64,000 nucleotides of DNA from Candidatus Sulfotelmatobacter sp. (lineage in GTDB: Bacteria; Acidobacteriota; Terriglobia; Terriglobales; Acidobacteriaceae), in contig DATFNP010000042.1 of assembly GCA_035266345.1 (NCBI GenBank), positions 9,660 to 73,659 of the forward strand, written 5' to 3'. A program made the position numbers and the translations under genes. Below, piece after piece: positions 1-17,621 of this stretch (the stretch's first letter is position 1; every line of letters begins with the position of its first letter). The notes beneath the pieces were generated by a model that was not told the DNA's origin, made no database searches, and saw only the letters and a list, made by a program, of their open reading frames with translations.

Positions 1-10
1 AGACACCGCG

Positions 11-187
11 TCAGCTTGGTTGCACGTACACGGGTTCTCGCTTGCAGATTTTTTCCAGGGTATGCTGATTGATTCCGCGACGCATGAATTCTCGTTTGGG
101 AACCTTCGCGATCCGCGCCAGTTGTTCGTCATCTGCAACAGCATTCCCTCTTCGTCTGTACTGGATGGGCGAATGCAAGGCGAACAT
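11..187 (-). CDS. Possible small (58 aa) DNA-binding-like protein
   Basis: ATG at 187 and TGA at 11-13. Translation: MFALHSPIQYRRRGNAVADDEQLARIAKVPKREFMRRGINQHTLEKICKREPVYVQPS. It is below the ORF-track cutoff and no family was recognised. Confidence 0.25.
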   Translation of the reverse strand: MFALHSPIQYRRRGNAVADDEQLARIAKVPKREFMRRGINQHTLEKICKREPVYVQPS

Positions 188-912
188 GATAGGATTACTG
201 TGCTGTGGACGAGGGCTGCAAGCGCGTGCTGTTGATTGCGGCGAGCATCCTAGCCGCTCGCAAACTGGCGCAGTTACAACGGAGGGACGCGCGTCCCGGC
301 GACGCTTGATAACACGATGGCCGCTACAATAACTGGTGTGAGACCTCTGGAGGGGAAGAAGCCCGTAGTCGTCTCCGCAACTGTGACCGTCCCGGCGACC
401 TCCCCGCTTTGGGGCTTATCAATTGCAACCACTGTGACGCCGCCGGGCACTCCGAACTCGACGACAGCGTCCTCGCCTACTCAACGTGCCGTCGCAAGAA
501 CAACGCCAAGTCCGGTGATTCGATACGCAGCGGCAGTGCTGACGGGGCAAGACGACGTGCTTGCGTCCATAGCCCCTTGTTTTGACAGCGACAGCGCGAG
601 AATCAAGAAACAAAGGCTCAAGAAAAAAAGAAGACAGTTGGGTTTTGGAGTCATTGGAATTCGCACTCTGCACGACGGGAAATGAAGTTCTCGCCGTAGC
701 TGACGACATGGTCTCTCGCATTAACCAAATCCTAGCCCTCTACTGCAACTTCACTCGATACTTTCGGTTGATTGCATTAGCTGGATTAACGCGAAGGGCG
801 AAGCACTACGCACTGTTCGGGGTTCCCTCCCACGAACACATTACCCGCCTCAACCCTAACAGGTCAGGCAAAAGCGGCTCCAAGAGATAAACCGAGGCCA
901 GGTTCCCCAATA

Positions 913-1395
913 TCAACTCGCCGACCTGAATCCGGCTAAGGCCCAGAACACTGAGCGCATCAATGCAAACACAAGCACGACGGGTAGAACCGCAAACGCT
1001 GCATACCCTCTAATTTCGTCATCATGCCAACGTTCCCACCGTGAGGGTAGGGCGAACCGGTGTCCATGTGGAACCTCGTATTCATCTCCACCACAATCTC
1101 CTCCAGCTAAAACCCACGGCTCCTTATCCGATACTCGGCTGCCTGTCTTGTCGTAGCAGTCCACTTTCTGACCCCGTGTGTCTATCGTAAAACCGGAGGA
1201 AAGGTGTACTACCGGCCGCCTGTTGTCAAAATCGGGAGCCACACCTAGGTCATGTGCTGGCGCTTTAGGCCACGAACTGGCGTCCATAGTGGCGAGCGCG
1301 ATTACGAAGACCACCCAGCATATCGCCGTGACAACGTACAACCGTGTTATCCCGCGTCTCCACTGAATGCTCTTCATCGTCTCCGGGGCTGTCAT
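913..1395 (-). CDS. Hypothetical membrane protein (two hydrophobic segments)
   Basis: 160-aa ORF. Its start overlaps the stop of the upstream ORF (ATGA at 1392-1395), which suggests translational coupling. TM-like segments: LYVVTAICWVVFVIALA and AFAVLPVVLVFAL. Confidence 0.55.
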   Translation of the reverse strand: MTAPETMKSIQWRRGITRLYVVTAICWVVFVIALATMDASSWPKAPAHDLGVAPDFDNRRPVVHLSSGFTIDTRGQKVDCYDKTGSRVSDKEPWVLAGGDCGGDEYEVPHGHRFALPSRWERWHDDEIRGYAAFAVLPVVLVFALMRSVFWALAGFRSAS

Positions 1396-1877
1396 TTCCG
1401 GGAGCCTATATCTCTTTTCTCATCGGCAGGCATTCCGACAGTGGAAGAGGGTTTCTTCGGCGGCTGCTCTTGCAAAGGTGTCCCGTCGGCCCATTGCAAT
1501 CTAAGTGCGTAGTGTTTGGGTCGTTTCTTCGGAGCAGGTTCAATTCGCGTTCTGAAGACCTCATCGGCTTTCGCTTTGCGGAATTCCTGCATTCCGTTGT
1601 ACTGCGGGTGCAAGATGACAATTGCACGCGCATAATACGGTTCCAGTTTGTCATTCAGCTTGTAGGTGTCCGATGGACCCTTTTCGATGTCCAGTTTCCA
1701 ACGTGCGTATTCCCACAAGGAGCCGCAAGAATAGGCAGTAAATCCGCGCCTGATGCGTGCCTCAATTCCCTCAACCAGGAAGTCCAGCACCTCAGGGTGA
1801 TTGCGGTGAAACTGATGAAACTCTCGCAGTTCCTGGCAGTCCTTAGAATGCGCTACTAGTTCCTCAATCGTGTGCAT
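1392..1877 (-). CDS. Hypothetical protein (possible cargo of the left element)
   Basis: 161-aa ORF, same orientation as and downstream of the left cas1, coupled to 913-1395. No recognisable family. Confidence 0.55.
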   Translation of the reverse strand: MHTIEELVAHSKDCQELREFHQFHRNHPEVLDFLVEGIEARIRRGFTAYSCGSLWEYARWKLDIEKGPSDTYKLNDKLEPYYARAIVILHPQYNGMQEFRKAKADEVFRTRIEPAPKKRPKHYALRLQWADGTPLQEQPPKKPSSTVGMPADEKRDIGSRK

Positions 1878-2104
1878 AATTCACGGCCCGCAGTTTTAAC
1901 AATAGTCATCACAATCACCCACCGCCAGTCACCACGGTAACCTAAGCAAACCGCGGTCTAACTGCGCTCTGTTCGTTGGTTTAAGAACCGTGCCGTTCCG
2001 CGCCGTTCGCACTGCTTCACATCGAAAACACGGTAAAGCGTGCCATCTGCTGCCGTCTAAGTTGTTGTAACTACGTTTTCACGCGGATTCAAGGTCCCTG
2101 GCAC

Positions 2105-3670
2105 CTATGAGCCGAGCGTCCTTTCGATGTATCTTTCTGGACTTGGTGAAACATCTACCAGTTTCGCCAGCGTCTGCCAGTGCCTCGGATGCGGGCGATA
2201 TCCCTCGCGGATGCGGCCACCGTACCAGCGAGACACTGAGATTTGTCGAGCGATAGCACGTGCTGAGGTCGAGGCGAGGAGTGGTTGAATCTTTTCCGAA
2301 AAGAATTTCTCTGTCAGCCACGCTGGCTGGTCGGACGACTTCCATGAGTGTTGCGCTAAAGCGTTCTTACGTTGAGTGATCGCACGCTTCAACTGGGCTT
2401 CAGGACCATTCGCCGTTTGGCGACCAATCCGCGCGGCATCGAGCATGTTCTTGGTGGCATCCCCAAGGGAGCAGCTGACACAGGTGGTACTGCGGTCTTG
2501 AATAGTTTTCCCGCAGCCGGGACAAATATTTTCCCGCCGGGGTGCCTTAATCGCGGATGGTAGTGGCGGTGCACCCTTTGCTTCTCGCTTGAAACGCTGC
2601 GTTAGCCGCGTAGGCGGCGCAGACTCACGAGCGAGCCTGGCTGAACTCGACCAGAGCGCACGAGCAATCCACTCCGCGAATGGCGCGACCGCACGAGCCC
2701 ACATCGGAGCTGTCTGCGAAAGTTGACAAGCGAAGGATGCGGTCAGCCGAGTGTTCCCATTTCCTAGCTCAAGAAACCATTCTCGCTTAAGCGGTTCGCG
2801 TGTGATCCAATCAAGCAAGTAAGCGTCCACGCGTGCGCGACTTGGCTCCATCAGGTCGCACGCCAAACTGTCGCGCGCAGTTGTGTCCACATGCAGAACA
2901 CCCAAGCCTGGGTCTAGTCCCAGACAAGCCGCTGCAAGACGAGCTTCGGATTCCAGCAGGCAATACAGAAAGTTAAGAATTGCGTTTGCGGGATTTGCGG
3001 CAAGCCGGGGTGATCCCGTCAGCGGAGAGACCCGCGCTCCGAAGCTCTGCCAATGAGCGGGAATTCGTCCAACCTCATTCTTCGGGAAGTTGACAGGTAG
3101 TGTGCTCCACGCCGACCAATAGGATCGGGCGGCTTGTGACTCGATCAACCGGATAGTCGTGATGCTCTCGGCGGCTGGCAATTCCGCCATGAATTGAGCA
3201 ATCTTGTCAGCGGCAGAGGTGTCCAAGAGTTTGTAACGCGCAACCTGTGCCTGCCCTGCGAGCTTCTGGCTGATTAGTTCTCGCGCGATTCGCAGCGCGG
3301 CGCCGGATGAAAGCGCAAGGGCTTGGGCTCGCCGGAGTTTGGCATCCGAAGGGCGGACCGGCCCGGTGACGGCGAGCACCTTACCATCACGTTCAAGCAT
3401 CGCAAAACTTGCATCCTGATCGGCGAGCCAGCGCAGCGCGGCCAGTGATATGAACCCGTCTGAGCCAATGCAGACCAAACGCCTCAGCCCGTGTCCGACG
3501 CGGGCGAGCCTGATCTTGCGGCGCTCCGGCCCGATGCCATCTTCGATTTCCAAGTGGCCGGACTGCATCCGCACCTTGATTCCGAAACCAGTGAGCGTGA
3601 GAACGCCACTTCTGCCAATGAGGGATTTACGGGATACGTTGTGTTGCGGTAGGGTGCCTGAAGCTGCCAT
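2105..3670 (-). CDS. cas1: Cas1-family integrase (casposase-like) with C-terminal Zn-ribbon and HTH extension
   Basis: 521 aa. Cas1 signatures: IESQAARSYW (catalytic E), NPANAILNFLY, GLDPGLGVLHVD (H), SLACDLMEPSRARVD (D/E). C-terminus carries CPGC..CVSC and an HTH-like ARQISVSRWYGGRIREG. Confidence 0.9.
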   Translation of the reverse strand: MAASGTLPQHNVSRKSLIGRSGVLTLTGFGIKVRMQSGHLEIEDGIGPERRKIRLARVGHGLRRLVCIGSDGFISLAALRWLADQDASFAMLERDGKVLAVTGPVRPSDAKLRRAQALALSSGAALRIARELISQKLAGQAQVARYKLLDTSAADKIAQFMAELPAAESITTIRLIESQAARSYWSAWSTLPVNFPKNEVGRIPAHWQSFGARVSPLTGSPRLAANPANAILNFLYCLLESEARLAAACLGLDPGLGVLHVDTTARDSLACDLMEPSRARVDAYLLDWITREPLKREWFLELGNGNTRLTASFACQLSQTAPMWARAVAPFAEWIARALWSSSARLARESAPPTRLTQRFKREAKGAPPLPSAIKAPRRENICPGCGKTIQDRSTTCVSCSLGDATKNMLDAARIGRQTANGPEAQLKRAITQRKNALAQHSWKSSDQPAWLTEKFFSEKIQPLLASTSARAIARQISVSRWYGGRIREGYRPHPRHWQTLAKLVDVSPSPERYIERTLGS

Positions 3671-3747
3671 TGGAGCTCATACCTCCGTGGTAGTTAGGGT
3701 CTGTCGGCTGCTTCGAACAGTCCGGCAGGCCCGCTTCCTTCAATGAA

Positions 3748-4542
3748 CTAATTTGGATTCCGCAATTTGTACCTTCGTCTGGTCCGTTGACGTGTGGGCG
3801 TAGCCCTGCGCGACTGCACGAACACCTCTTCGGGTCTAAGAGATCCGACCAGATTGATGGCTGTACGTGCTTTAACCCCGAAGAGCGCGCCCGCGAGGGC
3901 CCGAGACAGAAACCAGAATTGCTTGTACCGAGTCGAGGGGCGTGCTGACACATCGCAGCGCGGGAAACGGGGATCACGCAACGCATCCACATATTGCTCC
4001 GCGAACTCAGACAAATAACCGGGCAGCGTACTGCCTGGAAGCATGGGCCAAGCCGGAAACTGCTCAACATCTTGGAAACCCCCAGGCTCAATCTCGACTG
4101 TTCGACTCATGAAGGCTTCTTTACAAATATCGCGCACTCGCTCGGGAGTCGTTTTGGGGTCTAGCAAAGAGTTGATTACCTCCGGCTCACCGGGGAACCT
4201 CAGTTCCTCCCTAGCTTCTTCTGCTATACAACGTCGTAACCAATCTCGCGTGACCGGAATCTCGGCATCTTCTATTTCTCGGAGCCTGGTTTCCCTCTGA
4301 GCCTGCGCCAACACACCAGCGCGAATCTCATTCCCAATGATCTCCTCGCGGTGCTGTCTCGTTTCTTCCTTTAGTTGAGCATCCGTTTTCCGGTCCAACT
4401 CTGCTTCTAACTGCTTCTGCTTTAGCCTATTGATCCGCCATCGGGGCATTCCCTCGGCAATCCTCCGAAAGTCCCAATAGAACTGATGGGCGAACGTGTA
4501 GAGCGTTTCTGAGTCTACTTTTGTTGGTCTTCCAGCTCCCAT
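3748..4542 (-). CDS. Conserved element protein of unknown function (264 aa), paralogue of 10391-11158
   Basis: Shared blocks with 10391-11158: N-terminal MGAGRPTKVD..FAHQFYWDFRRIAEG and C-terminal LRDPRFPRCDVSARPSTRYKQFWFLSRALAGALFGV..TAINLVGSLRPEE. It lies immediately upstream of cas1. Confidence 0.75.
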   Translation of the reverse strand: MGAGRPTKVDSETLYTFAHQFYWDFRRIAEGMPRWRINRLKQKQLEAELDRKTDAQLKEETRQHREEIIGNEIRAGVLAQAQRETRLREIEDAEIPVTRDWLRRCIAEEAREELRFPGEPEVINSLLDPKTTPERVRDICKEAFMSRTVEIEPGGFQDVEQFPAWPMLPGSTLPGYLSEFAEQYVDALRDPRFPRCDVSARPSTRYKQFWFLSRALAGALFGVKARTAINLVGSLRPEEVFVQSRRATPTRQRTRRRYKLRNPN

Positions 4543-4662
4543 AATTAAAGGGCAAAAGCTATTTTAGATTTCTTGAAGCTCTTAGGTTACATCCTCTATA
4601 ACTGCCTACAGTATGCACGTTGACTGCTTGTTACGCAAGGGGCAATAACAGGAGGCACCAGG
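4543..4662. promoter_or_regulatory. Divergent control region of the left module, with two AAGGG(G)CAA motifs
   Basis: AAAGGGCAAAA at 4547-4557 and CAAGGGGCAATAA at 4636-4648. The same motif pair is conserved in the right-copy intergenic region while the spacer is diverged. AGGAGG precedes the ATG at 4663. Confidence 0.45.
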
Positions 4663-4899
4663 ATGCACCGAGATGAAACCGTAGTAGCCGTTGGGATGTC
4701 CGAAGCGGCCCGGAGGTTGGGCCTGTCCACTCGCACCGTGGCCACGCTTGTCCTGCGGAACGAGCTTCCGAGCCGAAAGGTGGGCCGCCGGAGAATTATT
4801 CCGGTTATGGCATTGGAGGCCTTCGTTAGGAGTGATCACGGGTCTGGCTGCCTCGGGCCAGCTGCAGCTGCTGAAGGAGAAACTGGCAGAACGGCGTAA
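4663..4899 (+). CDS. Excisionase-family helix-turn-helix DNA-binding protein
   Basis: MSEAARRLGLSTRTVATLVLRNELPSRKVGRRRIIPVMALEAFV matches the Xis/MerR-type HTH pattern (..G.S..T...L...G.LP..K.GRR..I....L..F). Paralogue at 10047-10268. Confidence 0.85.
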   Translation: MHRDETVVAVGMSEAARRLGLSTRTVATLVLRNELPSRKVGRRRIIPVMALEAFVRSDHGSGCLGPAAAAEGETGRTA

Positions 4900-4904
4900 A
4901 AACC

Positions 4905-5459
4905 ATGCCGCACAAACGAAAGCGGCAGGCGGAAACCTCGTCCAGGGGCAGCCGCTCAGCCGCTAAGAACAAAAAACGCTTCAACATTAGTGTCTCGCGT
5001 CACGATGCATCGCGCAAGCGCATTACTGCGTTTGAACTCGTGAGACTTCGACGCCAGGGTCTTGCCTGGAGGGATATTGAAAAACAGTCGGGCATCACTC
5101 GCCGAACAGCAAAGCTTCTTCTCCCACGTGCTTTTTTCCATGACGAGCGTGGCCAGCTTCAGGTGCGTGGGTATGACCGGTATACCCGCACACTGAAAAT
5201 CCCCACGGCTAAGCCAGGGGAATTTAGGTGGCTGCGCGCTCGCGGGAGCCGCCAAGCAAGCCTTGTGGGTGCGTGGAACAACGCAGTCAAGGCCGCGGGG
5301 CGGGGCGATTTCTCACTTATAGATGCCTTTCCGCGCAATATCTTCATAGACGGAGTGCGTCTCGCAACCTCCCATTACGAGGTTTCACGTATCGCTGCGG
5401 CTGCTGCGGAGAGCGATCAGCCGTTCGAGGATCTGTACGCCCTGGCAGGTGCGGTGTAA
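4905..5459 (+). CDS. Conserved element protein of unknown function (184 aa, basic N-terminus, internal HTH-like segment)
   Basis: Same position as 9405-10031 in the other copy, with weak similarity by eye. Basic N-terminus: MPHKRKRQ. HTH-like segment: LAWRDIEKQSGITRRTAKLLL. Confidence 0.65.
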   Translation: MPHKRKRQAETSSRGSRSAAKNKKRFNISVSRHDASRKRITAFELVRLRRQGLAWRDIEKQSGITRRTAKLLLPRAFFHDERGQLQVRGYDRYTRTLKIPTAKPGEFRWLRARGSRQASLVGAWNNAVKAAGRGDFSLIDAFPRNIFIDGVRLATSHYEVSRIAAAAAESDQPFEDLYALAGAV

Positions 5460-5461
5460 CT

Positions 5462-5737
5462 GTGCGCAAACGATGCACACTTTGCGACAGGCCAGCCACA
5501 GAATGGCATCACGTCGGCGGCCGAAATCACTGCAGTTGGTTTCGTGTTCCGCTGTGCACTCTCCATCATCAGCTGGTAACCAGAGCCTATTACAATGCCG
5601 ACCCTGACATGATGAAACCGGCGTCGAACCTTGAGCAGCGGATCAAACGCGCTCGTGAAGGATGCCATGTCTTTTTGTGGTTACTGGATCACCCGGAGGT
5701 AATTGATCCGGAGAAGATTTTGGGAGGTAACGTATGA
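5462..5737 (+). CDS. Small HNH-like zinc-finger protein
   Basis: GTG start in frame. CTLCDRPATEWHHVGGRNHCSWFRVPLCTLHH fits CxxC..HH..G.N..LC..H. Its stop overlaps the polB-fragment start (ATGA at 5734-5737). Paralogue at 9115-9408. Confidence 0.7.
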   Translation: MRKRCTLCDRPATEWHHVGGRNHCSWFRVPLCTLHHQLVTRAYYNADPDMMKPASNLEQRIKRAREGCHVFLWLLDHPEVIDPEKILGGNV

Positions 5738-6477
5738 TTCCTGATCGCTTGCCAATCTTTCTTCGGGCGCACACGGTCAAAGTGCAGAGGCAGCCCAAAG
5801 CTCCATCGAAGAAAGATAGCGCGATGCCTCCACGCTGGCCAGAGCGCGCCCTGCTGTTCGACACTGAGACCCGCACTTCCATTGATCAGACGTTGATGTT
5901 CGGAGTCTACCGTATCTGCAATCTGATCGACGGACAGTACCGTTGCAGCGAAGAGGGTCTCGTCTATGATGAACGACTTTCCAAACAGGAACTCAACACC
6001 ATAGGGACTTTCGTGGCAAACAGTTTTCCCGACATCGAGCTGCCTTGCTTCCCGCCCAAGATACGGTTGCGAGTACATCGCTCGTTCCCCGAATTCATGG
6101 AACACGTGTTCTTTCCCGCGCTGCGTAAGGGATGGCTGATCGTGGGCTTCAACTTGCCATTCGATCTAAGCCGTCTCAGCCTCGATTGGCGGACGCACAA
6201 TGGGGGATTCGCCCTCATTTTTTCAAAGACGTGGTGGAGAAAAACTCAATGTTGGGTTGCGAATCCCTATCGGCCGCCGATCATCCTCGAAGCGAAAGAC
6301 GCGCGGACAGTATTCATGTCTCGTGGCTCAACGAAACGTCCGGCGGAATGGCCGAACGAAGCCAGACTCCTCGACATCGGAACATTGTTATTTTCGCTGT
6401 TCGATCAACATTGCAGTCTGCGCGATTGGTGGTGCCGGATATATTCCTCGATCATGTGCCCGTACGTGAGAGGGTGA
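5734..6477 (+). pseudogene. Family B DNA polymerase, N-terminal (exonuclease domain) fragment
   Basis: Aligns with aa ~40-290 of the 901-aa PolB (LLFDTETRTSIDQTLMFGVYR; VGFNLPFDLSRLSLDW; LLDIGTLLFSLFDQHCSLRD). Homology ends at ~6425-6430. The remainder is antisense to the other polB. Confidence 0.8.
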
Positions 6478-9110
6478 AAACCAGGATCGTCCATCCGGTA
6501 ACGTCGATATCGGCCGCGCCGATCCCGATTGTGAATATCGACACCTTCGAGACTGCGCCACTCGTCTTGCTTGCTCGAAAATGGCACAATCACCATGGGT
6601 TTGTGATCGGGTTTGTTATCAAAATCGAAATCGAATGAGTACGCCTCGGAAGTCATCACCATGAACATGAAATTGTGGGGACGTGCACCCTCCCACATCT
6701 CCAGCATCTTGAACACGTTCCAAGTCGATACGGAGAAGCGCATCATCTCCGGAAGTGAAGCCCAATCCGGTCGTGTGCGTTCTAATCCCAGAAATTCGCG
6801 CACGATGTAATCCCACATCTCGTAAACCCACAGTGGCGCGTCTTTTCTCCAATTTCCCGGGTTGTCTTTTGGGGGATAGAGAAAGCCGATTCCGTGCGCT
6901 TTGGGATTGACGATTTTTGTATCTGTTAATTTCCCGCGTCTGTTCAATACCTTTTCAAGTAGCGCGTATCTTTTGGCTGCTATGCCCACACCCCACAACT
7001 GCCGACGCACCTTTTTCTTCGCGTTGCAGTTGCATCCGCGCACCTCACAAACTCCGGCTTCATCATGCTCGGTTTTGAGTTCATGCGAACATTTGCACAC
7101 GTAATTGTCATCTGTGAGATTCAGTAGGTCCTGCACTACGTCCGGGTCGTACGGATTGAGCGCCTGGAACTTGGCAGTAATTCGGTCAACGTCATCCCAG
7201 GTCAAAATACGTTTACCCTGCGCGCCGGGGGTACGCAGCGTGCCGCCATTCTTCGATGCCACAATCGCCAAACTGTCGGTGTCGCAGTATAGATATGTTC
7301 CTCCGGCTCGCGTCACTTCGACCTCTAGCATCGCGAGCAAAAGCCTTCCGGCGGACGTGATGAGAGTTGCCAGGTAGGGCGCGAGCCACTTTCCCCGTTT
7401 TTCGATTACGCAGGAAGAATCAGGGAAACACTCATCACCGGAGAACACCATCACGCGCCTGGGTTGCTTGAAATGCTCTGGAATCAACTCCACAAAGAAC
7501 CCGTAGATCGAATTGGCCAGGATCTTCAACCAGTAGTAGAGATCGGCATCATCCTTGTTGCGTTTGCGTTCCTCGATAATCTTTGTGAAGAGGTCAACCG
7601 AATCATCATTAGGATCAATCAGGACTTTGCCGCGTAGTCTTACGGCTCTCATCCCCGGCTGCTTTCCGGAGGGCACAATGCGGAATGCCTGTTGAATCTT
7701 GGGAATCTTGCCGGGTTGCTGAACCACTGCGGCCACGAGGTCGGGGCCAGCCATGTAGACGGGTTCGGGATGAGCTGGGTTCGGATGCAAGTAGTTGTTG
7801 CCGATGTTATGGGTCACACCATCGTAGACAGTCCGGATGGGCAGGATGTCCCCATCAGGCAATACGCGGGCCACAAAGTTGAGATTGCGCCATGTGTCAC
7901 GCCGGAAGCATCTTTCCATAGTGATAGTCGCAACGAGGCGCTTTACGTTTTCCGTATCATCGACAAAGTCCAAACGCTCAGCCGTCAAGAATTTAAACAG
8001 CCCAAGGTTTGCACAACAGGATGGATACTCGGAGGTGTAATCAACAGGGGCCACGGGCACAACTTCGTGGCGGATTCGGCATTCGGAGCGACCGCCGTAG
8101 TAGCTCTGCATCCAACACCCAAGCTTTTCGTTGGGCACCTTGAACTTGACCTCAGGTCGTTCGATCCCCATTGCCTTCAGGTACGCTTTGGCAATACTCG
8201 CAGGTGAATAGGCATTCCAAGGCTTCAAATCTAGATCGGCATGCCTGTCAAATTCCTGCTTACAGGCGTTCAGCAATGCAATCGTGCAGCGGACATCCTG
8301 ACGGCAGTGTTCAATTTCCTCAGGTGTGACTCCGCCACTCGGATCATGATCATCTTTCTGGGGTAGGTTCTGCCCTTTGAAAGGACCGCCTTTGTTGTCA
8401 CAGGCAGTCCTAAGCGAGTGCGACTTGTTGTAAAGCACCCAGAGCAAGGTCCGAAGGTCGAGAAAGTGGATGTTTCTACCTGCGTCCTTCCACTCGTGTT
8501 GATTCTTCTTCCAAGGTCGCCACAGCTTGATTATCTGTTTCTTGCTGTCTATTGGTGTGATCAGGATGCGGGGATAATTGCAATTTTCGGGGCCGTCGGC
8601 ATATTGCATCAGCACGAGCGACCATTCGCCCTTATTCCCGTCCGTCCAGTCCAGGGTGATCCGCGTGAGATCGTAGCCGAGATTAAAGCCGACCACCATG
8701 GAACCGTCTCGCTTCAGCGCGGGCCAGAGTACCTTCTCCATGAACTGGGTGCGCGAGTAAAGCGGGAAGCGGGGAGGAAATGACGGTACATCGGAGACCG
8801 CCGTCTCCGTGTAAGTTTTGAGAACTTTGAGATCTTTCACGGGCAGGTCGTCAGCATGGAAAATCCCCTCTTCGATGACCTCATATTTCTGTCCGACTAG
8901 CTTGCTGCAGCGCCGCCATACGCCAAAGGTGAGTGACTGATCTACTGTGACCCGGCTTTCGGTATCGAACGCGAGGATGTCCGGCCACTTGGGTTCGCCC
9001 AGGGCATTGTTCTCCCCTTCGGTATTGGCGGTCTTTTTCTTCTTTTTCTTTCTCTCTATCGGTACGGCAAGAGCGCGCAAAAAGAGATCGTGAGTCTCAA
9101 TCATTTCCAA
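6405..9110 (-). CDS. polB: Family B DNA polymerase (3'-5' exonuclease plus polymerase domains)
   Basis: 901 aa. Motifs: Exo I AFDTES; Exo II VGFNLGYDLTRI; motif A VDYTSEYPS; motif B KILANSIYGFF; motif C YCDTDSLAIV; KxY IAAKRYALL. Confidence 0.92.
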   Translation of the reverse strand: MEMIETHDLFLRALAVPIERKKKKKKTANTEGENNALGEPKWPDILAFDTESRVTVDQSLTFGVWRRCSKLVGQKYEVIEEGIFHADDLPVKDLKVLKTYTETAVSDVPSFPPRFPLYSRTQFMEKVLWPALKRDGSMVVGFNLGYDLTRITLDWTDGNKGEWSLVLMQYADGPENCNYPRILITPIDSKKQIIKLWRPWKKNQHEWKDAGRNIHFLDLRTLLWVLYNKSHSLRTACDNKGGPFKGQNLPQKDDHDPSGGVTPEEIEHCRQDVRCTIALLNACKQEFDRHADLDLKPWNAYSPASIAKAYLKAMGIERPEVKFKVPNEKLGCWMQSYYGGRSECRIRHEVVPVAPVDYTSEYPSCCANLGLFKFLTAERLDFVDDTENVKRLVATITMERCFRRDTWRNLNFVARVLPDGDILPIRTVYDGVTHNIGNNYLHPNPAHPEPVYMAGPDLVAAVVQQPGKIPKIQQAFRIVPSGKQPGMRAVRLRGKVLIDPNDDSVDLFTKIIEERKRNKDDADLYYWLKILANSIYGFFVELIPEHFKQPRRVMVFSGDECFPDSSCVIEKRGKWLAPYLATLITSAGRLLLAMLEVEVTRAGGTYLYCDTDSLAIVASKNGGTLRTPGAQGKRILTWDDVDRITAKFQALNPYDPDVVQDLLNLTDDNYVCKCSHELKTEHDEAGVCEVRGCNCNAKKKVRRQLWGVGIAAKRYALLEKVLNRRGKLTDTKIVNPKAHGIGFLYPPKDNPGNWRKDAPLWVYEMWDYIVREFLGLERTRPDWASLPEMMRFSVSTWNVFKMLEMWEGARPHNFMFMVMTSEAYSFDFDFDNKPDHKPMVIVPFSSKQDEWRSLEGVDIHNRDRRGRYRRYRMDDPGFHPLTYGHMIEEYIRHHQSRRLQC

Positions 9111-9114
9111 TCCC

Positions 9115-9408
9115 TCATTTCGAGTTGCCCTCTAGTGCTTTTTCTTTCTCGATGTCTGAAGCAATTTCCTTTTCGAGCATGTCAAGCAGCATCCACATGA
9201 ACAGAACCGTCATCTTCAGGGCACGGATGAGCCTGTGAAAGCGATTCGGAGTGGAGCGTAGATCAATTCCGGCAGCCCGCTGTCTCGCATGGAAAATTAC
9301 TTGACACCTGGCGCAGAGCGACATGGTGAACCATGCAATGAAATTCTGCCCCCCGACGTGATGCTGCGTCACATCACAGGTGCTACCGCAGAGATTGCAC
9401 CGTCTCAT
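9115..9408 (-). CDS. Small HNH-like zinc-finger protein
   Basis: CNLCGSTCDVTQHHVGGQNFIAWFTMSLCARCQVIFH fits CxxC..HH..G.N..LCxxC..H. Its start overlaps the stop of 9405-10031. Confidence 0.8.
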   Translation of the reverse strand: MRRCNLCGSTCDVTQHHVGGQNFIAWFTMSLCARCQVIFHARQRAAGIDLRSTPNRFHRLIRALKMTVLFMWMLLDMLEKEIASDIEKEKALEGNSK

Positions 9409-10031
9409 GCGGCACCCCCGAAGTACGGGATGACCTGTTCACTACCGAAATGTTCGGGGAGATTGTCTTGCTCGCCCAACCTCCGAAGGGTTTTCGGGTC
9501 GGTCAGAAGCTCGTACCCTTGGACCGTTACGCCTCGCCATTTATCAAGCGCAGTAAGATCGCCTCTTTGAAAACGGAAGACATCGTTGCGGAAACGTGCA
9601 ATCTCGTTCCTGGCCTTTGAGCCTTCGATTTTGATTATGATTGGACCACTCGGGCCGGGAACTTCCATCCGGCGGACATAACGATCAGCGATGGCGCGGA
9701 TTCTGCCGTTCCTGTCCTTTTTGAATGCCTTGGGTATGTATTTCCAAAAGTCGCGGGTCGTGACGCCTCGGCCCTCTGCAGCTTGCGAAGCCGTGAGCTT
9801 GTGGTCGCGCAACATATCCGCATGCGCCGCCAGTGCATCCCCACGTTTCCTTAGCTCCGCCGGAGAGAGTAACCATGGGCGAGGCGCGCGATAGTGCTTA
9901 GAAACTGCGGCCGTGGCACGAGCAATTTCACCCGCGCGCGCAGATCGCGCTAAACTTGAGTTGATTGGTTTAGTTTTTCTGGCCCCCGGTAGCCTGGCGC
10001 GGCGAGCCTGGGACCTTCTTTTTGACGGCAT
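9405..10031 (-). CDS. Conserved element protein of unknown function (208 aa, basic N-terminus)
   Basis: Positional counterpart of 4905-5459, translationally coupled to the HNH-like gene. N-terminus: MPSKRRSQARRAR. Confidence 0.7.
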   Translation of the reverse strand: MPSKRRSQARRARLPGARKTKPINSSLARSARAGEIARATAAVSKHYRAPRPWLLSPAELRKRGDALAAHADMLRDHKLTASQAAEGRGVTTRDFWKYIPKAFKKDRNGRIRAIADRYVRRMEVPGPSGPIIIKIEGSKARNEIARFRNDVFRFQRGDLTALDKWRGVTVQGYELLTDPKTLRRLGEQDNLPEHFGSEQVIPYFGGAA

Positions 10032-10046
10032 TGGCTCACCCCGCGC

Positions 10047-10268
10047 TCATGCTGTTTCCCTCAAAGCTGCTGCTCTAGTGCGACCAGGCCCATGGTTGGC
10101 TTGTACGAAAGCCTCCAAAGCCACAACGGGGATAATCCGTCGGCGACCTACCTTGCGGCTTGGTAGCTCCCGCCGCAGAACAAGAGTCGCTACTGTTCGA
10201 GCGGACAGCCCCAACCGCCGGGCTGCCTCAACCATCCCCACCGCAAGCACAGTTTCATCTCGGTGCAT
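10047..10268 (-). CDS. Excisionase-family helix-turn-helix DNA-binding protein
   Basis: MHRDETVLAVGMVEAARRLGLSARTVATLVLRRELPSRKVGRRRIIPVVALEAFV is nearly identical to the 4663-4899 product. Confidence 0.85.
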   Translation of the reverse strand: MHRDETVLAVGMVEAARRLGLSARTVATLVLRRELPSRKVGRRRIIPVVALEAFVQANHGPGRTRAAALRETA

Positions 10269-10390
10269 CTTCGAGCCTCCTATTTATTGCCCTTGCAGTG
10301 GCTAACCAGCAAGGCGCATAATATAGTTGTGTTGTACGGGATGATGACAATCACGGTCAATGATAGAGAAGCAGTTTTTGCCCTTTAATT
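10269..10390. promoter_or_regulatory. Divergent control region of the right module, with two TTGCCCTT motifs
   Basis: TTATTGCCCTTG at 10284-10295 and TTTTGCCCTTT at 10376-10386, the reverse complement of the motifs in 4543-4662. Confidence 0.45.
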
Positions 10391-11158
10391 ATGGGAGCCG
10401 GTAGACCACAAAAAGCCGACCCTGGATCGGTCTACGCGTTCGCGCACCAGTTTTATTGGGATTTCCGGAGGATCGCCGAGGGGAATCTTCGGTGGACACT
10501 GGACAGGGTAAAGCTTCGACAGTCGACCATCGAGCTTGAGAACTTGAACATCCCCGCAGAGGCAGCCAAGAAAGCTGAGGAAGAAATTCAAGCTGGTCTC
10601 TTAGAAGCATCCAAAAAGCAGGAACGGTGCCGGGAGCTGGAGGATCAACTCTCCTCAACACGGCCACTGTGGTCCCGTATCGTAAGAGAGGATGCTATGA
10701 AGGAAGTCAGGATACCGGGTGAACCCGGAGTCCTTAAGGAATTGCTGGACCCGGCAACGACTCCGGAGCGGATACGAGAGGTCTGCAGAGAAGCAGTCAT
10801 GACTAGGAAGGTTGAAGTTGAACCCGGCGTGCAGAAGGAAATAGAAGTAGAGGCCTGGCCCATTCCTCCAGGCAGTCCATTTCCCACATATTTGTCTCAG
10901 TACGCAGAACAGTACGTTGCTGCCTTGCACGACCCGCGTTTCCCTCGCTGTAATGTTTCAATCCGCCCGTCGACCCGACTGAAGCAATTCTGGTTTCTAT
11001 CTCGCGCCCTCGCGGGTGCGCTTTTCGGGGTTACCACACGCACAGCCATCAATCTGGTCGGCTCCCTCCGACCCGAAGAGATTTTCGAAGAATCTCGGGA
11101 TGCAAAACCGGCACGCAAACGGGTGAGGCGAAAATACAAATCGCGGCCCGCAAGCTAA
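10391..11158 (+). CDS. Conserved element protein of unknown function (255 aa), paralogue of 3748-4542
   Basis: MGAGRPQKADPGSVYAFAHQFYWDFRRIAEG ... LHDPRFPRCNVSIRPSTRLKQFWFLSRALAGALFGVTTRTAINLVGSLRPEE. Confidence 0.8.
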   Translation: MGAGRPQKADPGSVYAFAHQFYWDFRRIAEGNLRWTLDRVKLRQSTIELENLNIPAEAAKKAEEEIQAGLLEASKKQERCRELEDQLSSTRPLWSRIVREDAMKEVRIPGEPGVLKELLDPATTPERIREVCREAVMTRKVEVEPGVQKEIEVEAWPIPPGSPFPTYLSQYAEQYVAALHDPRFPRCNVSIRPSTRLKQFWFLSRALAGALFGVTTRTAINLVGSLRPEEIFEESRDAKPARKRVRRKYKSRPAS

Positions 11159-11236
11159 GCTTCTTGAAGTAAAACGGGCCTGCCGACTGTTAGTAGCAGC
11201 CGACAAGCCCTGACCACCACAGGAGGCATTACTCCA

Positions 11237-12763
11237 ATGGCAGCTTCGCCCACGCTACCGCACTCGCACGCCCTCCGCAAATCTGGCGTCCTGGTCTTGA
11301 ATGGCTATGGCATCCGCGTCCAGGTGAACGCCGGTCATTTGCTCTTGCATGATGGGATAGCCGACGACCGCTGCACCATCCGCCTGCCCCGTGTAAACCA
11401 TGGTCTGAAAAGGTTGGTGCTGATCGGGAGCGACGGTTTCATTACGCTAGAAGCCCTGCGCTGGCTGGCTGATCAGGACGCGAGTTTCGTGATGCTTGAC
11501 CGCAGAGGCAAGGTGCTTGCCGTTACTGGTCCTGTTTCTCCATCGGATGCCAAGCTCCGCCGAGCACAGGCGCTCGCAATCGGCAACGGGACGGCGCTCA
11601 AGATTTCCAAGGAACTCATCTCCCAAAAGCTCGCCGGGCAGGAGCTACTCGTGCGGGATATGCTGCATGATTCCGCGGCAGCAGACGCAATTGCTCGATT
11701 CAAGGATGAACTACAAAGCGCGGAAGGTATAGAAGTCGTGCGGCTGATCGAAGCGCAGGCTGCGCGCTGCTATTGGCAATCGTGGGCTAACATACCGATT
11801 CACTGGCCGCGCAAGGACGAGCGCCGTGTGCCGGAACATTGGAAGCGATTTGGTTCCCGCATCTCACCCTTGACCCACAGTCCACGCCTTGCGGCCAACC
11901 CGCCGAATGCCTTGAGCAACCTGATCTATTCGATCCTGGAGGCGGAATCGAGACTAGCTGCATCGGCGATGGGCCTTGATCCCGGCATCGGCTTGCTCCA
12001 CGTGGACACCCCCAACAGGGATTCTCTCGCCTGTGACATCATGGAGCCGATACGCGCGAAGTGTGATGCCTTTGTTCTTGATTGGCTTCAGCGAGAGCCG
12101 CTCCGCCGCTCCGACTTTTGGGAGGACCGTAATGGGAACTGCCGCATTGCGTCACCGTTGGCCATCAAGCTCTGCGAGACTTCGGACACGTGGCGCAAAC
12201 TAGTAGCTCCGGTAGCAGAATATGTCGCGCAAGAGATTTGGTCCTCCGCGTCCAAACCAAGTTCCGTATCCAAGATTGCTCGACAATTGATCGCAACTCG
12301 CCTTACGCAGCGCTACAAACGCGAAGCAAAAGGTGGCGACCTACCAAAAGTTGGCCAGCCTAAACCCGAACATGTTTGCAGCGATTGCGGAGTCAAGATT
12401 CCAGTCGATGGGCAGCGCTGCTGGAAATGCTCAAAGCGGGTTACGGGTGTCAACTTCAAAGCCGGGCGTAAGTGCGCACAGCAACCGGAGCACCTAGCAA
12501 AGCGGGCAGCCACCATGCGGCGGCACAAGCAGGCCATTCGAAATTGGAAACCCTCAGACCTCCCGGCGTGGCTCACCCGCGATGTCTACCTAAAGCGGAT
12601 TCAGCCCGCGCTTGCCAGCGTCGCGAAGGCGCAAATCGGCGCCCTGCTGGGCGTAAGCGAGCCGTACTCATCGGACATTCAGGCGGGCAGGCGTATTCCG
12701 CATCCGAGGCACTGGCAGGCGCTGGCCCAACTGGTCGGTCTTCCGCCTGGCGGTGCTCATTGA
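11237..12763 (+). CDS. cas1: Cas1-family integrase (casposase-like) with C-terminal Zn-ribbon and HTH extension
   Basis: 508 aa. Signatures: IEAQAARCYW, NPPNALSNLIY, GLDPGIGLLHVD, SLACDIMEPIRAKCD. C-terminus carries CSDC..CWKC and the HTH-like IGALLGVSEPYSSDIQAG. Roughly two-thirds identical by eye to 2105-3670. Confidence 0.92.
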   Translation: MAASPTLPHSHALRKSGVLVLNGYGIRVQVNAGHLLLHDGIADDRCTIRLPRVNHGLKRLVLIGSDGFITLEALRWLADQDASFVMLDRRGKVLAVTGPVSPSDAKLRRAQALAIGNGTALKISKELISQKLAGQELLVRDMLHDSAAADAIARFKDELQSAEGIEVVRLIEAQAARCYWQSWANIPIHWPRKDERRVPEHWKRFGSRISPLTHSPRLAANPPNALSNLIYSILEAESRLAASAMGLDPGIGLLHVDTPNRDSLACDIMEPIRAKCDAFVLDWLQREPLRRSDFWEDRNGNCRIASPLAIKLCETSDTWRKLVAPVAEYVAQEIWSSASKPSSVSKIARQLIATRLTQRYKREAKGGDLPKVGQPKPEHVCSDCGVKIPVDGQRCWKCSKRVTGVNFKAGRKCAQQPEHLAKRAATMRRHKQAIRNWKPSDLPAWLTRDVYLKRIQPALASVAKAQIGALLGVSEPYSSDIQAGRRIPHPRHWQALAQLVGLPPGGAH

Positions 12764-12770
12764 CCCCATG

Positions 12771-12792
12771 ATGAGTGTAAACGGGATTTTGC
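12771..12792 (+). repeat. 22-bp direct repeat, copy A (ATGAGTGTAAACGGGATTTTGC)
   Basis: Matches 13487-13508 at 20 of 22 positions. Begins 8 nt after the right cas1 stop codon. Confidence 0.85.
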
Positions 12793-12815
12793 AACATTTG
12801 AGCAAGGCCACTGAC

Positions 12816-13385
12816 TTACGGTGAACGAGGAAGGCCCCTTCCCACTTCAATAATCATGTAGGGTCCTGTTGGAAATTCGCGTCCATCCGCCTCGATCACA
12901 AACCTCACCATCTCGCCTTTTAGCTTACCGCGAGCCGCCGTGGCTTCGGACCCTATCGAGAGAGTCTGACCGGGCCAAAGTCGCTTGTCCACCAGTTTGG
13001 ATTGTGCGATCCCTAGAGGGTATGGGCGACAATAGGTTCCCGCCGTATCAAAGAGCGTTTTCCAACTGTGCGTTCCCGTGTCCAACTGCTCAAGTCTATA
13101 CGGGACGCTCACTCCATGAGCGCCTGCGTCCGAAACAAATTCACATCTCTCGATTGTCGCTGGGAAGAGCCCGAAGTTTGTAAGGTGCGCATCAATGAGT
13201 TGCGTGATGCCCGGTATTCCAGTGTCGCCGTCGGAGACGGTCACATCAGCGTGCAGTCCAAGCGAGACGAAGTGGCCATATTGCGAGTGATGGTGAATTT
13301 GCAGGGCTCCGAGCGCAAGTACGAGAAACGAAAACACGGCAACCAAAGTCAAGGTCACGGGCCGCATTCTAAGAGCACGTTGCAT
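12816..13385 (-). CDS. Hypothetical secreted or membrane-anchored protein (189 aa)
   Basis: N-terminal hydrophobic signal-like segment VTLTLVAVFSFLVLALGAL. Lies entirely between the two 22-bp direct repeats. Confidence 0.55.
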   Translation of the reverse strand: MQRALRMRPVTLTLVAVFSFLVLALGALQIHHHSQYGHFVSLGLHADVTVSDGDTGIPGITQLIDAHLTNFGLFPATIERCEFVSDAGAHGVSVPYRLEQLDTGTHSWKTLFDTAGTYCRPYPLGIAQSKLVDKRLWPGQTLSIGSEATAARGKLKGEMVRFVIEADGREFPTGPYMIIEVGRGLPRSP

Positions 13386-13486
13386 AGCAGATCATGATAG
13401 ACCCGACTCGATGACCCAACCAACGCAGCAGCTTGTGTTTAGCAGGACAATTGACGAAATCAGGCGATTACACGTTTTGACGGTCA

Positions 13487-13508
13487 ATGAGTGATAACGG
13501 GATTTTGC
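13487..13508 (+). repeat. 22-bp direct repeat, copy B (ATGAGTGATAACGGGATTTTGC)
   Basis: Matches 12771-12792 at 20 of 22 positions. Confidence 0.85.
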
Positions 13509-13521
13509 GCCAACCCACGCC

Positions 13522-13944
13522 CTAATTTCCGTCAGGGCATTTGCAGGGAGTCGGAGGCGGTGGTGGCGGCGGTGGCGCTACTAGGAACGTATTCAACTGC
13601 GCAGTTGGAAGCTCGTAGAGGCCGCCGACCCTCAACCAGCAATACAACGCGAGCGCAGCCACCGGAATGCCGATCAGCAACGAGACTGCAAGTTTCCTCG
13701 AAGGTAGATGAAGCGGCTCGATTGCCTTCCGGGCTATGAAGAACCTTCCCATCGGCAGCGCCAATCCCACGACCATGATCAAAAACATCAGGATCGACCT
13801 GACCATCTGTGTGGTCATTCCCGATCCTGAAATCGCGTTGTAAAGAAACTCAGGGAACGTAAGCATGAGTTCCCCACGTGCCAGCGCTCCAACAAGGGGA
13901 CGGATGAAAACTGGAAACGCCCAGAACCACACGATGACAAACAT
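13522..13944 (-). CDS. Hypothetical integral membrane protein with poly-Pro C-terminus
   Basis: Several hydrophobic segments (MFVIVWFWAFPVFI, ILMFLIMVVGLAL, LLIGIPVAALALYCW). The tail has a PPPPPPPP run. The start was chosen at the internal Met because the upstream part of the ORF is a G-rich, Arg/Pro-rich stretch that is unlikely to be coding. Confidence 0.5.
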   Translation of the reverse strand: MFVIVWFWAFPVFIRPLVGALARGELMLTFPEFLYNAISGSGMTTQMVRSILMFLIMVVGLALPMGRFFIARKAIEPLHLPSRKLAVSLLIGIPVAALALYCWLRVGGLYELPTAQLNTFLVAPPPPPPPPTPCKCPDGN

Positions 13945-14257
13945 CACGAACCACGCAAGGAGAGAGCGCTTCGCATAGCCCGCGCTTCTCGCTCTACCAG
14001 CTAGCCCCGCGCCTCGCGCGGGCGGGCGGGCCCGGCGGGCTGGGTGTTCCAGCGGGCGGGTTCGGGGTTCCTGGGAGCGCGCGGGCGGGGGCGGCCAGGT
14101 CAAAATCGGGGGGTATGGCCGTCCATCCGGCGCTGTGGTATTACGGTGCCCCGAGTGACCCCGCTGGGTGGGGGGTGGAGCCGTTTTTCCCGTAGCCACA
14201 TCCTACCCGAACCAGTATTGACGCCATCCCCCTCAGCCCCTAACATTCCTCTAACGC

Positions 14258-16615: not shown

Positions 16616-16619
16616 AAAG

Positions 16620-16982
16620 AATCGAGTTTCCTACCGCGCCGCCGCCACACTTTGTGAGACGAACCGCAACCCCGCCGCCAGGCAAAGCCCCAATCTCCGC
16701 GGTGTAACGGTAAAACAACTGCAGCCCTTCCAGGCATCCGGCGTCGAGTTGGTAGTAGATATTCTCGGTCAGATAACTGCGGACTTCCGTCTCGCTGAGC
16801 CCAGGCGCGGCGCCCATTCTTGGGCGATCTGATTTAGACTGGCCGACTCCAGTCCATGATCGCGCGATTCGCCAAAAAACGCCGCCAGATCGAGCGAAGG
16901 ATCCGCCTCGCCCAGGGCCTGCTCCCGCACCGCACAATCCCAACTTAATCGCTCGACATTTTCGCCGGGGTGGCCGGATTTC
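16620..16982 (-). pseudogene. Remnant of an MqnA-like (futalosine-pathway chorismate dehydratase family) gene: C-terminal part only, frameshifted
   Basis: One frame gives LDLAAFFGESRDHGLESASLNQIAQEWAPRLG. After a +1 shift, another gives LSETEVRSYLTENIYYQLDAGCLEGLQLFYRYTAEIGAL, which resembles an MqnA C-terminus from memory. No N-terminal two-thirds is present. Confidence 0.4.
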
Positions 16983-17051
16983 TCACCCCTCTATAGCTAT
17001 CCCAGTCAAACGGGCCTATCCTGGCCACAGCGCCGGCCAAGTTCGATTCGC

Positions 17052-17621
17052 CTAGGGAGCGCTATGCCCCTTGCATTGCATCACGCCCAGATAGGCGCTC
17101 CACGGGCCTACTGCGTCACGATACTGGTGAGCCATGACGCGGGCGAGTTGATGCAAATGATTGAGGTCGTGAACGGCCCAGGTTGCGAGAAGTTCCGACA
17201 GCGTCACCACTCCCAACGCTGGATGCCTTCCGCGCCGGGCCAGGTCCCCCGGCTTTAAATTCAGCGCCTCGAGCGCAACCAGATTTTCTTTTCGCAGGCG
17301 GGCGAACTCATCGAGGAGTTGCTCCAGCGACTTGCCTTGGCTCTCTCTGGACTGCGCAAAGCGGTCGAAGGGATCAAAGGGCTTCGCTTCGCCGTTCTCC
17401 AGAATGATCCGCAGGCGCGGCATCCAGTCGGTGCGCTCGCCGACGATCAGGTGGCCGACGATGTCGAACGCGCTCCATGTGTCTGCCCCCAGGCTGCCGC
17501 GTCCTTCGTTGCGGAGCACCCAGGTGTCGGGCAGGCCGCGCAGCAGCGCATTCAGGGTTGCAGGAGTGCGGGAGAGAACGGCGATGGCTTCGGACAGGTC
17601 GAATTCCGCCAAGCTTGGCAT
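17052..17621 (-). CDS. DinB-family (DinB_2-like) protein
   Basis: WSAFDIVGHLIVGERTDW and LATWAVHDLNHLHQ are His-containing helices typical of the DinB/YfiT fold. Confidence 0.8.
   Translation of the reverse strand: MPSLAEFDLSEAIAVLSRTPATLNALLRGLPDTWVLRNEGRGSLGADTWSAFDIVGHLIVGERTDWMPRLRIILENGEAKPFDPFDRFAQSRESQGKSLEQLLDEFARLRKENLVALEALNLKPGDLARRGRHPALGVVTLSELLATWAVHDLNHLHQLARVMAHQYRDAVGPWSAYLGVMQCKGHSAP

Follow-up and report, generated by a model that had tools for sequence, protein, structure and literature searches.

Two unannotated protein families of acidobacterial casposons: a candidate switch regulator beside Cas1 and a polymerase-linked helix-turn-helix protein

Two diverged casposon cores lie tail to tail

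The 64,000-nucleotide stretch analysed here (hereafter the window) spans positions 9,660 to 73,659 of the forward strand of contig DATFNP010000042.1 (assembly GCA_035266345.1, Candidatus Sulfotelmatobacter sp.) and carries two diverged cores of a casposon, a transposon with a Cas1 integrase and a DNA polymerase of its own, of the kind presumed to be ancestral to the CRISPR adaptation machinery. Each core includes one member of two protein families, here called fam1 and fam2, which an earlier note on this DNA had picked out as conserved and element-specific. Both are indeed present in two copies, fam1A and fam1B being 57% identical across 261 amino acids (aa; E 3e-103) and fam2A and fam2B 26% identical across 102 aa (E 7e-8).

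A listing of open reading frames (ORFs) and pairwise comparison of their products reveal a mirror-image pair of gene sets joined tail to tail. In each, a xis-like gene of the HTH_17 (helix-turn-helix, HTH) family is followed by fam2, an HNH-like gene and a family B DNA polymerase gene (polB), and this series diverges from fam1 followed by cas1. In copy A the casposase gene cas1A (2105-3670, minus strand; 521 aa, with a C-terminal zinc ribbon and an HTH-like tail) is preceded by fam1A (3748-4542, minus strand; 264 aa), which heads the fam1-cas1A operon. On the plus strand, the xis-like gene (4663-4899; 78 aa, PF12728 at 5e-10) opens a four-gene operon that continues with fam2A (4905-5459; 184 aa, an HTH protein of the replication module with the terminus ...PFEDLYALAGAV), the HNH-like gene (5463-5737; GTG start 3 nucleotides (nt) past the fam2A stop, weak RecA_dep_nuc match) and a remnant of polB-A (5734-~6426), the start of which is overlapped by the HNH-like gene. 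Only the first ~230 codons of polB-A, the exonuclease part, are left (positions 6-229 of a 978-position family hidden Markov model built from nine full-length relatives).

Copy B has the same genes on the opposite strands. On the minus strand lie polB-B (6405-9110; 901 aa, motif C YCDTDS, positions 3-861 of the family model), an HNH-like gene (9115-9408) that starts within the fam2B stop (ATGA) and ends 4-10 nt before the polB-B start, fam2B itself (9405-10031; 208 aa, C-terminal tail ...EQVIPYFGGAA, described from an AlphaFold2 model and its homologous clusters) and the xis-like gene (10047-10268; 73 aa, PF12728 at 2.9e-10). On the plus strand, fam1B (10391-11158; 255 aa) heads the operon with the casposase gene cas1B (11237-12763; 508 aa, with an HTH_31 match at 2e-4).

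Identity between the copies is 53% for Cas1, 35% for the HNH-like proteins and 34% for the PolB N-terminus; the xis-like protein, which had been overlooked in the earlier note, is the most conserved of the module (85%) and heads the fam2-HNH-polB operon in both cores. That fam1 sits directly upstream of cas1 in both copies, as the note had pointed out, is correct, the spacing being 77-78 nt each time. The spacer between the two genes (3687-3743 and 11164-11220) is 74% identical between copies and folds in both into an imperfect hairpin of the same form, immediately before the GGAGG of cas1 (z -2.3 and -1.4); this hairpin has no U-tract and is therefore not an intrinsic terminator.

The two polB genes meet tail to tail at ~6424-6429, where both are cut off, polB-B lacking ~117 C-terminal profile positions. 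A deletion fused the two cores tail to tail and truncated both genes. An assembly artefact at the junction can be ruled out, since contigs of three runs from different peat samples span it identically. Because polB is truncated in each, both elements are probably replication-defective and the locus itself is probably not replication-competent.

Casposon identity, polymerase and ends

The integrases of both cores are Cas1 proteins by family (PF01867 at 3.4e-41 for cas1A and 1.3e-38 for cas1B; TIGR00287), as a casposon demands. The best match of cas1B in the PDB is chain 6OPM_A (1e-21), labelled there simply Cas1, which we take to be the M. mazei casposase. Positions 1-17500 of the window gave neither a CRISPR nor an Rfam match.

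PolB-B has the motifs of a family B DNA polymerase (ExoI FDTES, SEYPS, KILANSIYG, YCDTDS and KRY), with weak matches to PF03175 and to a PHROG polymerase. With its ExoI motif ~50 residues in from the N-terminus, it lacks a long N-terminal domain. Motif C (LYCDTDSLAIV in polB-B, consensus MCDTDS among nine relatives) places it in the PolB_CDTDS cluster, which is defined by a motif C of this form, includes the Aciduliprofundum casposon polymerase and is related both to the main and to the protein-primed PolB groups, no member having been characterised (Kazlauskas et al. 2020, PMC7544198). No relatives of this polymerase were found in IMG/VR.

Six complete relatives of 10.9-15.5 kb (loci L009, L011, L014, L015, L018 and L019) show how such elements end. 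Their terminal inverted repeats, 37-126 bp long and perfect or near-perfect, begin with GGG(G)(T)AT, and the flanking 14-bp target duplications are perfect, with either GTCAA at their start or TTGAC at their end. A second inverted repeat, GGGGATAGG..., follows immediately on the duplication in L014 and L015, which indicates tandem insertion.

Within the window only a right-hand terminal inverted repeat is seen (16950-17003, minus strand; GGGATAGCTATAGAGGGG..., with TTTGACT just before it). It matches the repeat of L019 at 17 of 17 positions (E 2e-4) and is unique in the genome. The inner ends have been deleted, and the left outer repeat was not found in the window, in the contig or in the 9.6 kb upstream. 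The right-hand repeat would be where the copy-B casposon ends on its outer side, which would make positions 12764-16949 cargo. The genes at 12816-16615, including one for a 785-aa Ser/Thr kinase-TPR protein, would accordingly belong to copy B. Just outside cas1B lies a 22-nt direct repeat (12771-12792 and 13487-13508, 20/22 identical) containing CGGGATTTTGC, which resembles the inner part of the L009 terminal repeat. Downstream of cas1A, two coupled ORFs on the minus strand (913-1877; 161 and 160 aa, one a predicted membrane protein) have no family match in Pfam or PADLOC and are possibly cargo of copy A. In three unrelated genomes, giant genes resembling RHS/YD-repeat toxins adjoin the casposon core (L005 1-4647, L010 13256-18109 and L015 12656-17989) and could be either casposon cargo or a preferred neighbourhood.

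A third casposon core lies elsewhere in the same genome (contig C107, L110: 4618-11560), with polB (991 aa), HNH, fam2 and cas1 (516 aa). It has no xis, and a 347-aa distant fam1-like protein starts near 8853. Metatranscriptomes of the same peat sample gave a single 194-nt contig, which covers 12698-12891 of the window, and none over fam1 or fam2.

The cores in the window belong to a casposon of Acidobacteriota that has a PolB_CDTDS polymerase and stands close to family 3. The order HTH-HNH-PolB is that of family 2 and 3 casposons, the C-terminal zinc ribbon and HTH of Cas1 are as in AceAut-C1, motif C of the polymerase is CDTDS, the terminal repeats start with GGGG as in NitAL212-C1, and relatives have 14-bp duplications. 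Unlike those casposons, the lineage described here adds a Xis-like HTH_17 gene, divergent operons and a conserved control region. Acidobacteriota are not mentioned as hosts in the casposon literature that we searched.

Fam1 and fam2 match no named protein family

Homologues of fam1 and fam2 form 422 and more than 204 clusters, respectively, at 90% identity, nearly all labelled 'hypothetical protein', and conservation over hundreds of clusters rules out decaying ORFs. No match in Pfam, NCBIfam, PHROGs or PADLOC names either family, whether single proteins or sets of 50 and 38 members were searched. The PDB gave none by sequence or by profile, and Foldseek found none naming either family with the fam1 model against the PDB and BFVD or the fam2 model against the PDB, so that both keep the place outside named families that the earlier note had given them. 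A profile of 38 diverse fam1 sequences retrieved from 1.84 billion representatives only 180 clusters, none with known domains. The occasional matches of fam1A to Csm3/Cas7 and of fam2 to histone H2B, and one to a minor head protein, were dismissed as chance, being single-member and/or below the cut-off.

Among GTDB genomes all relatives of the core belong to Acidobacteriota, and the same gene order is found in 13 of the 16 full-length fam1 loci (among 19 GTDB loci in all). Fam1 was absent from 400 other sampled Acidobacteriota species genomes, the patchy spread that a mobile element gives. The casposon lineage occurs abundantly in metagenomes from peat and soil. Where a metagenome locus has enough downstream sequence, cas1 is the gene following fam1 in 60/67 cases, and divergently upstream of fam1 are found xis (52/64), fam2 (35/43), HNH (28/36) and polB (24/31). 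Outside this locus, too, co-occurrence with cas1 and polB is overwhelming.

The AlphaFold2 model of fam1A (pLDDT 85.6, pTM 0.71) has best structural scores of E 0.9-2.2 with TM <0.2 against the PDB and BFVD (Foldseek). Fam1 is predicted to adopt a new fold and has no detectable homologue of known function. Its string of secondary-structure elements, read by eye, follows a winged-helix-like order (H80-109, E111-117, H120-126, H133-141, E144-152, E155-163) and is succeeded by an all-helical C-terminal part. In the fam2B model (pLDDT 70.9), N-terminal residues 1-45 are basic and disordered, three helices at ~57-98 make up an HTH (~57-100), the body is beta-rich and includes a long helix, and the C-terminal tail is of low confidence. 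Foldseek matched fam2 only locally, to TetR-type HTH segments of 45-52 residues (root-mean-square deviation 2.5-3 Å), the rest being unmatched.

The core of family 2 casposons has been described as Cas1-HTH, a protein with winged HTH (wHTH) and HEAT parts, an HTH protein, HNH and PolB-HTH; AceAut-C1, which like NitAL212-C1 represents family 3, has PolB-HTH, HNH and HTH (Krupovic et al. 2014, BMC Biol 12:36, supplement). Fam2, directly upstream of HNH-PolB and on the same strand, occupies the slot of the HTH core protein of families 2 and 3. The earlier note, in which neither family matched a nameable gene of the casposon core, thus overlooked two positional equivalents in the published core. 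In fam1 no wHTH or HEAT signature was detected, with no Pfam match over 38 members and no fold match in the PDB.

Fam2 and fam1 might be highly diverged orthologues of the published HTH protein (1l3l/1x3u-like, represented by Mbur_0562, Mmah_1315 and HGMM_F11C09C12) and wHTH-HEAT protein, a comparison made by position and description. Their positions are identical to those in the published Cas1, wHTH-HEAT, HTH, HNH, PolB order and in the PolB-HNH-HTH order of AceAut-C1, fam2 has an HTH, and fam1 has the winged-helix-like secondary structure followed by helices. However, the HTH of fam2 is TetR-like in Foldseek rather than of the LuxR/FixJ type, and a profile scan of fam2 found no match to GerE or Sigma70_r4; no library returned HEAT or wHTH for fam1; and descriptions of family 2 include neither an added xis gene nor operons that diverge. 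Fam1 also occurs in elements without Cas1, and the basic N-terminal tail and invariant C-terminal tyrosine of fam2 (see below) have not been described for the casposon HTH protein. Orthology of this kind seems to us somewhat unlikely. We regard fam1 and fam2 as new protein families, in slots that had been recognised but not characterised in an established type of element.

A conserved control region separates the divergent operons

The 95-135 nt between xis and fam1 are more conserved than the proteins on either side. In region B (10269-10390, plus strand), which is conserved across 77-79 distinct loci, motif 1 (TTATTGCCCTTGCA, 10284-10297) is followed 18 nt later by CATAAT (10317-10322), an inverted GCAAGG half-site lies at 10309-10314, and motif 2 (TTTTGCCCTTTAATT, 10376-10390) touches the ATG of fam1B. 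Region A (4543-4662, minus strand) carries both motifs, as AATTAAAGGGCAAAA at 4543-4557 and, on the plus strand, AAGGGGCAATAA at ~4637-4648.

Over 79 distinct loci the per-position conservation of motif 2 is 0.73-0.97, mostly above 90%, with flanks at 0.3-0.5, and the motif is kept also where xis or cas1 is missing. No Shine-Dalgarno sequence precedes fam1, whose start codon motif 2 abuts. An explanation at the RNA level can be set aside, as motif 2 has no Rfam match and no stable fold (z ~0). Motif 1, as TTGCCCTTGCA, adjoins the xis ribosome-binding site and is found in 65/77 regions; 50 of these 65 have a -10-like hexamer resembling CATAAT 18-19 nt further on (7% in shuffles) and 44 an inverted GGCAA half-site (11% in shuffles). 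The right half of the region contains GTCAA (TTGAC on the other strand), which by eye fits a leftward promoter. Conservation of this kind suggests promoters within the control region. Upstream of remote fam1 relatives without an HTH_17 neighbour, TTTTTGCC or a TTTTTG core recurs, which points, weakly, to fam1 as the binder. A role of TTGCCC, the element shared by these motifs, as an end-binding site was ruled out, since none was seen on reading the terminal inverted repeats of the relatives and of the window.

Fam1 as a candidate switch regulator

The most conserved block of fam1 comprises residues 165-238 (WP..GS..P.YL...A.....AL.D.RFP......RPS...KQ.WF..R.LAGA..G...RT..N..G...P.). Arg, Lys, Gln, Asn and Thr account for most of the invariant positions in it, and the C-terminal tail beyond is basic and disordered. 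The N-terminal GRPxK segment, once likened to small terminase or HTH proteins, finds no such match in Pfam, NCBIfam or PHROGs, and only a G-R-P or G-P-K motif is conserved over the superfamily.

Fam1 is not confined to casposons. In four loci (L008, L013, L066 and L091) its end shares 4 nt with the beginning of a tyrosine recombinase gene (PF00589, 1e-31 and 2e-24), with xis still divergent upstream; in three others (L067, L070 and L072) it adjoins genes for VirB11 and a type IV coupling protein and faces a divergent XRE-type HTH gene. Remote relatives of ~200 aa face wHTH-x-Rep_1-integrase, Rep_1 or HTH_17 operons. They keep the N-terminal G-R-P or G-P-K with a Trp-rich helix, a 'VR.IC' helix and a third block, 'RYP.S.RPSS..KR..FLARAMAG...TA(V/I)(N/D)LL'. 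The 347-aa protein of the third casposon occupies the same position and has three motifs, AGRPT, LANAMAGL and TAVDLV, of which hhalign aligned AGRPT alone with fam1, the others being shared by eye. An orphan fam1 with motif 2 intact (L058 7062-7940, minus strand) diverges from a gene for a TIR-domain protein (PF13676, 2e-18), with no cas1, xis or polB nearby.

Divergence between families was compared pairwise by Mantel tests. Fam1 correlates with xis (rho 0.32, p 0.001, n 59) and not significantly with the neighbouring cas1 (rho 0.11, p 0.14, n 42); fam1-fam2 and cas1-polB both give rho -0.02. Fam1 is thus a component of integrative elements generally and not a subunit specific to Cas1, and the earlier suggestion of a dedicated Cas1 partner loses weight both from these figures and from the tyrosine-recombinase, type IV secretion and Rep_1 contexts.

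A broader form of that suggestion deserves consideration, namely that fam1 is a physical accessory subunit of whichever integrase it accompanies, either a target selector or an architectural factor like TnsD/TniQ of Tn7 or the IHF and Cas2 that serve Cas1. In this lineage such a subunit might direct integration to a TTGAC (-35-like) target, given that the 14-bp duplications of the relatives start with GTCAA or end with TTGAC. Its immediate position upstream of the integrase gene (Cas1 or tyrosine recombinase), often with a 4-nt overlap, and the extreme conservation of its C-terminal 75 residues would fit, as would the fact that the cas1-adjacent gene of family 2 casposons also encodes a DNA-binding protein (wHTH-HEAT). 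Against this, fam1 does not co-evolve with the Cas1 next to it, a single family serves two unrelated types of integrase, fam1 also occurs with no integrase adjacent (beside type IV secretion genes or alone), and a whole divergent operon separates the remote relatives from the integrase. We rank this possibility second and regard it as unlikely.

The arrangement recalls instead the switches of temperate elements. In phages P2 and 186, cI and int face apl (Xis/Cro) and the replication genes, and in pSAM2 korSA faces the pra/rep-xis-int operon. Here, too, a fam1-headed integrase operon faces a replication operon headed by an excisionase-type HTH gene, and it is for this reason that we read fam1 as a regulator; conserved motifs overlap an inferred promoter, and remote fam1 relatives face Rep_1-integrase operons. 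On this reading each core would be a two-operon switch, in which xis, fam2, HNH and polB serve excision and replication and the opposite operon of fam1 and cas1 serves maintenance and integration. In analogy to CI or KorSA, fam1 would regulate the divergent promoter region by binding DNA at the near-invariant TTGCCC motifs, of which one lies at the -35 of the fam1 promoter and the other adjoins the fam1 start codon. It would in this way set the balance between the integrated state and excision or replication. That fam1 is the on/off switch regulator of the element is our first choice, at a rough probability of 45%.

The likeness to those switches is limited. Fam1 resembles neither CI nor KorSA nor any other repressor family, and the motifs are direct repeats with one inverted half-site rather than a classical operator set. 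Several further points weigh against a regulator. No detectable homology links fam1 to DNA binding, and Foldseek did not report a winged helix in the fam1 model. A simple sigma-70 scanner did not call the promoters suggested above. The TTGCCC motifs could be bound by Xis, by the C-terminal HTH of Cas1 or by a host factor, and their near invariance leaves covariation uninformative. The frequent 4-nt overlaps between fam1 and integrase genes suit a stoichiometric complex as well as an operon of the cI-int type, and mirror-tree correlations are weak evidence, as recombination can erase their signal.

Fam2 in the replication module

Fam2 belongs to a replication module with HNH and PolB, as shown by the tight packing of the three genes and by their correlated divergence (fam2-HNH rho 0.74, fam2-polB rho 0.66, Mantel p 0.001); fam2 divergence is uncorrelated with that of xis, fam1 or cas1. 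The earlier proposal of a replication accessory or priming factor is strengthened by these results. Winged HTH proteins that hold the place of fam2 in the tyrosine-recombinase and Rep_1 elements were compared with it by hhalign, which found no relation.

In an alignment of 44 distinct fam2 sequences (median identity 28%, minimum 17%) only 7 columns are at least 85% conserved. One of them is a tyrosine 4-10 residues from the C-terminus, present in 44/44 sequences in the context [FL]-[DE]-x-[LIM]-Y. We infer that fam2, produced along with PolB and the HNH nuclease, is the subunit of the replication module that binds DNA. It may recognise the casposon ends or an origin and recruit HNH, for end nicking or processing, and PolB, the docking being by way of the C-terminal [DE]-x-[LIM]-Y peptide of fam2; we prefer this mechanism of an origin or end binder that recruits both enzymes through its tail. 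The invariant tyrosine speaks against it to the extent that it would suit priming just as well as docking.

Fam2 could then be the terminal protein of the PolB_CDTDS polymerase, the first nucleotide being linked to the C-terminal tyrosine and the linear casposon, bounded by its inverted repeats, being copied by strand displacement. Terminal proteins of protein-primed PolB replicons include phi29 p3, PRD1 P8 and Bam35 B4, and they are typically encoded just upstream of polB. Fam2 resembles them in being small and fast-evolving, with a basic N-terminus and a conserved hydroxyl residue near the C-terminus, and its gene precedes polB within a compact operon and co-evolves with it; to find a tyrosine among so few conserved columns at such low identity also fits. 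The polymerase has no long N-terminal domain, its uncharacterised cluster is related to the main and to the protein-primed PolB groups alike, and the G3-4 at the start of the inverted repeats is the terminal reiteration that sliding-back initiation needs.

However, an HNH gene intervenes between fam2 and polB, and the tyrosine lies in an unstructured, low-confidence tail rather than in a folded priming domain. Fam2 showed no similarity in sequence or fold to any terminal protein in structure and PDB searches, a database that presumably contains the phi29 terminal protein. The polymerases of family 2 and 3 casposons are of the RNA-primed type according to their discoverers, that of this lineage belongs to another cluster (CDTDS) than those of the protein-primed replicons, and an acidic-hydrophobic-aromatic peptide at the C-terminus is equally typical of docking motifs. 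Priming by fam2 at GGG(G) ends, with the co-translated HNH protein freeing or processing the ends, would make it the missing primer of family 2/3-type casposons, which we consider quite improbable compared with the origin or end binder described above.

Implications

To our knowledge the casposase is the only casposon protein to have been studied, and we know of no account of how casposons are regulated or of how family 2 and 3 polymerases are primed. The lineage described here offers two defined candidates. One is a polymerase-linked HTH protein with an invariant C-terminal tyrosine, whose role may be in priming, in origin binding or in docking. The other is a protein of new predicted fold, first in the integrase operon and next to a strongly conserved divergent control region, common to tyrosine-recombinase and rolling-circle elements. 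If fam2 does prime, this would settle how an entire, as yet uncharacterised cluster of PolB enzymes replicates DNA, and Cas1-bearing transposons outside family 1 would also be protein-primed. If fam1 is the switch regulator, it would represent a new regulator family of acidobacterial mobile elements.

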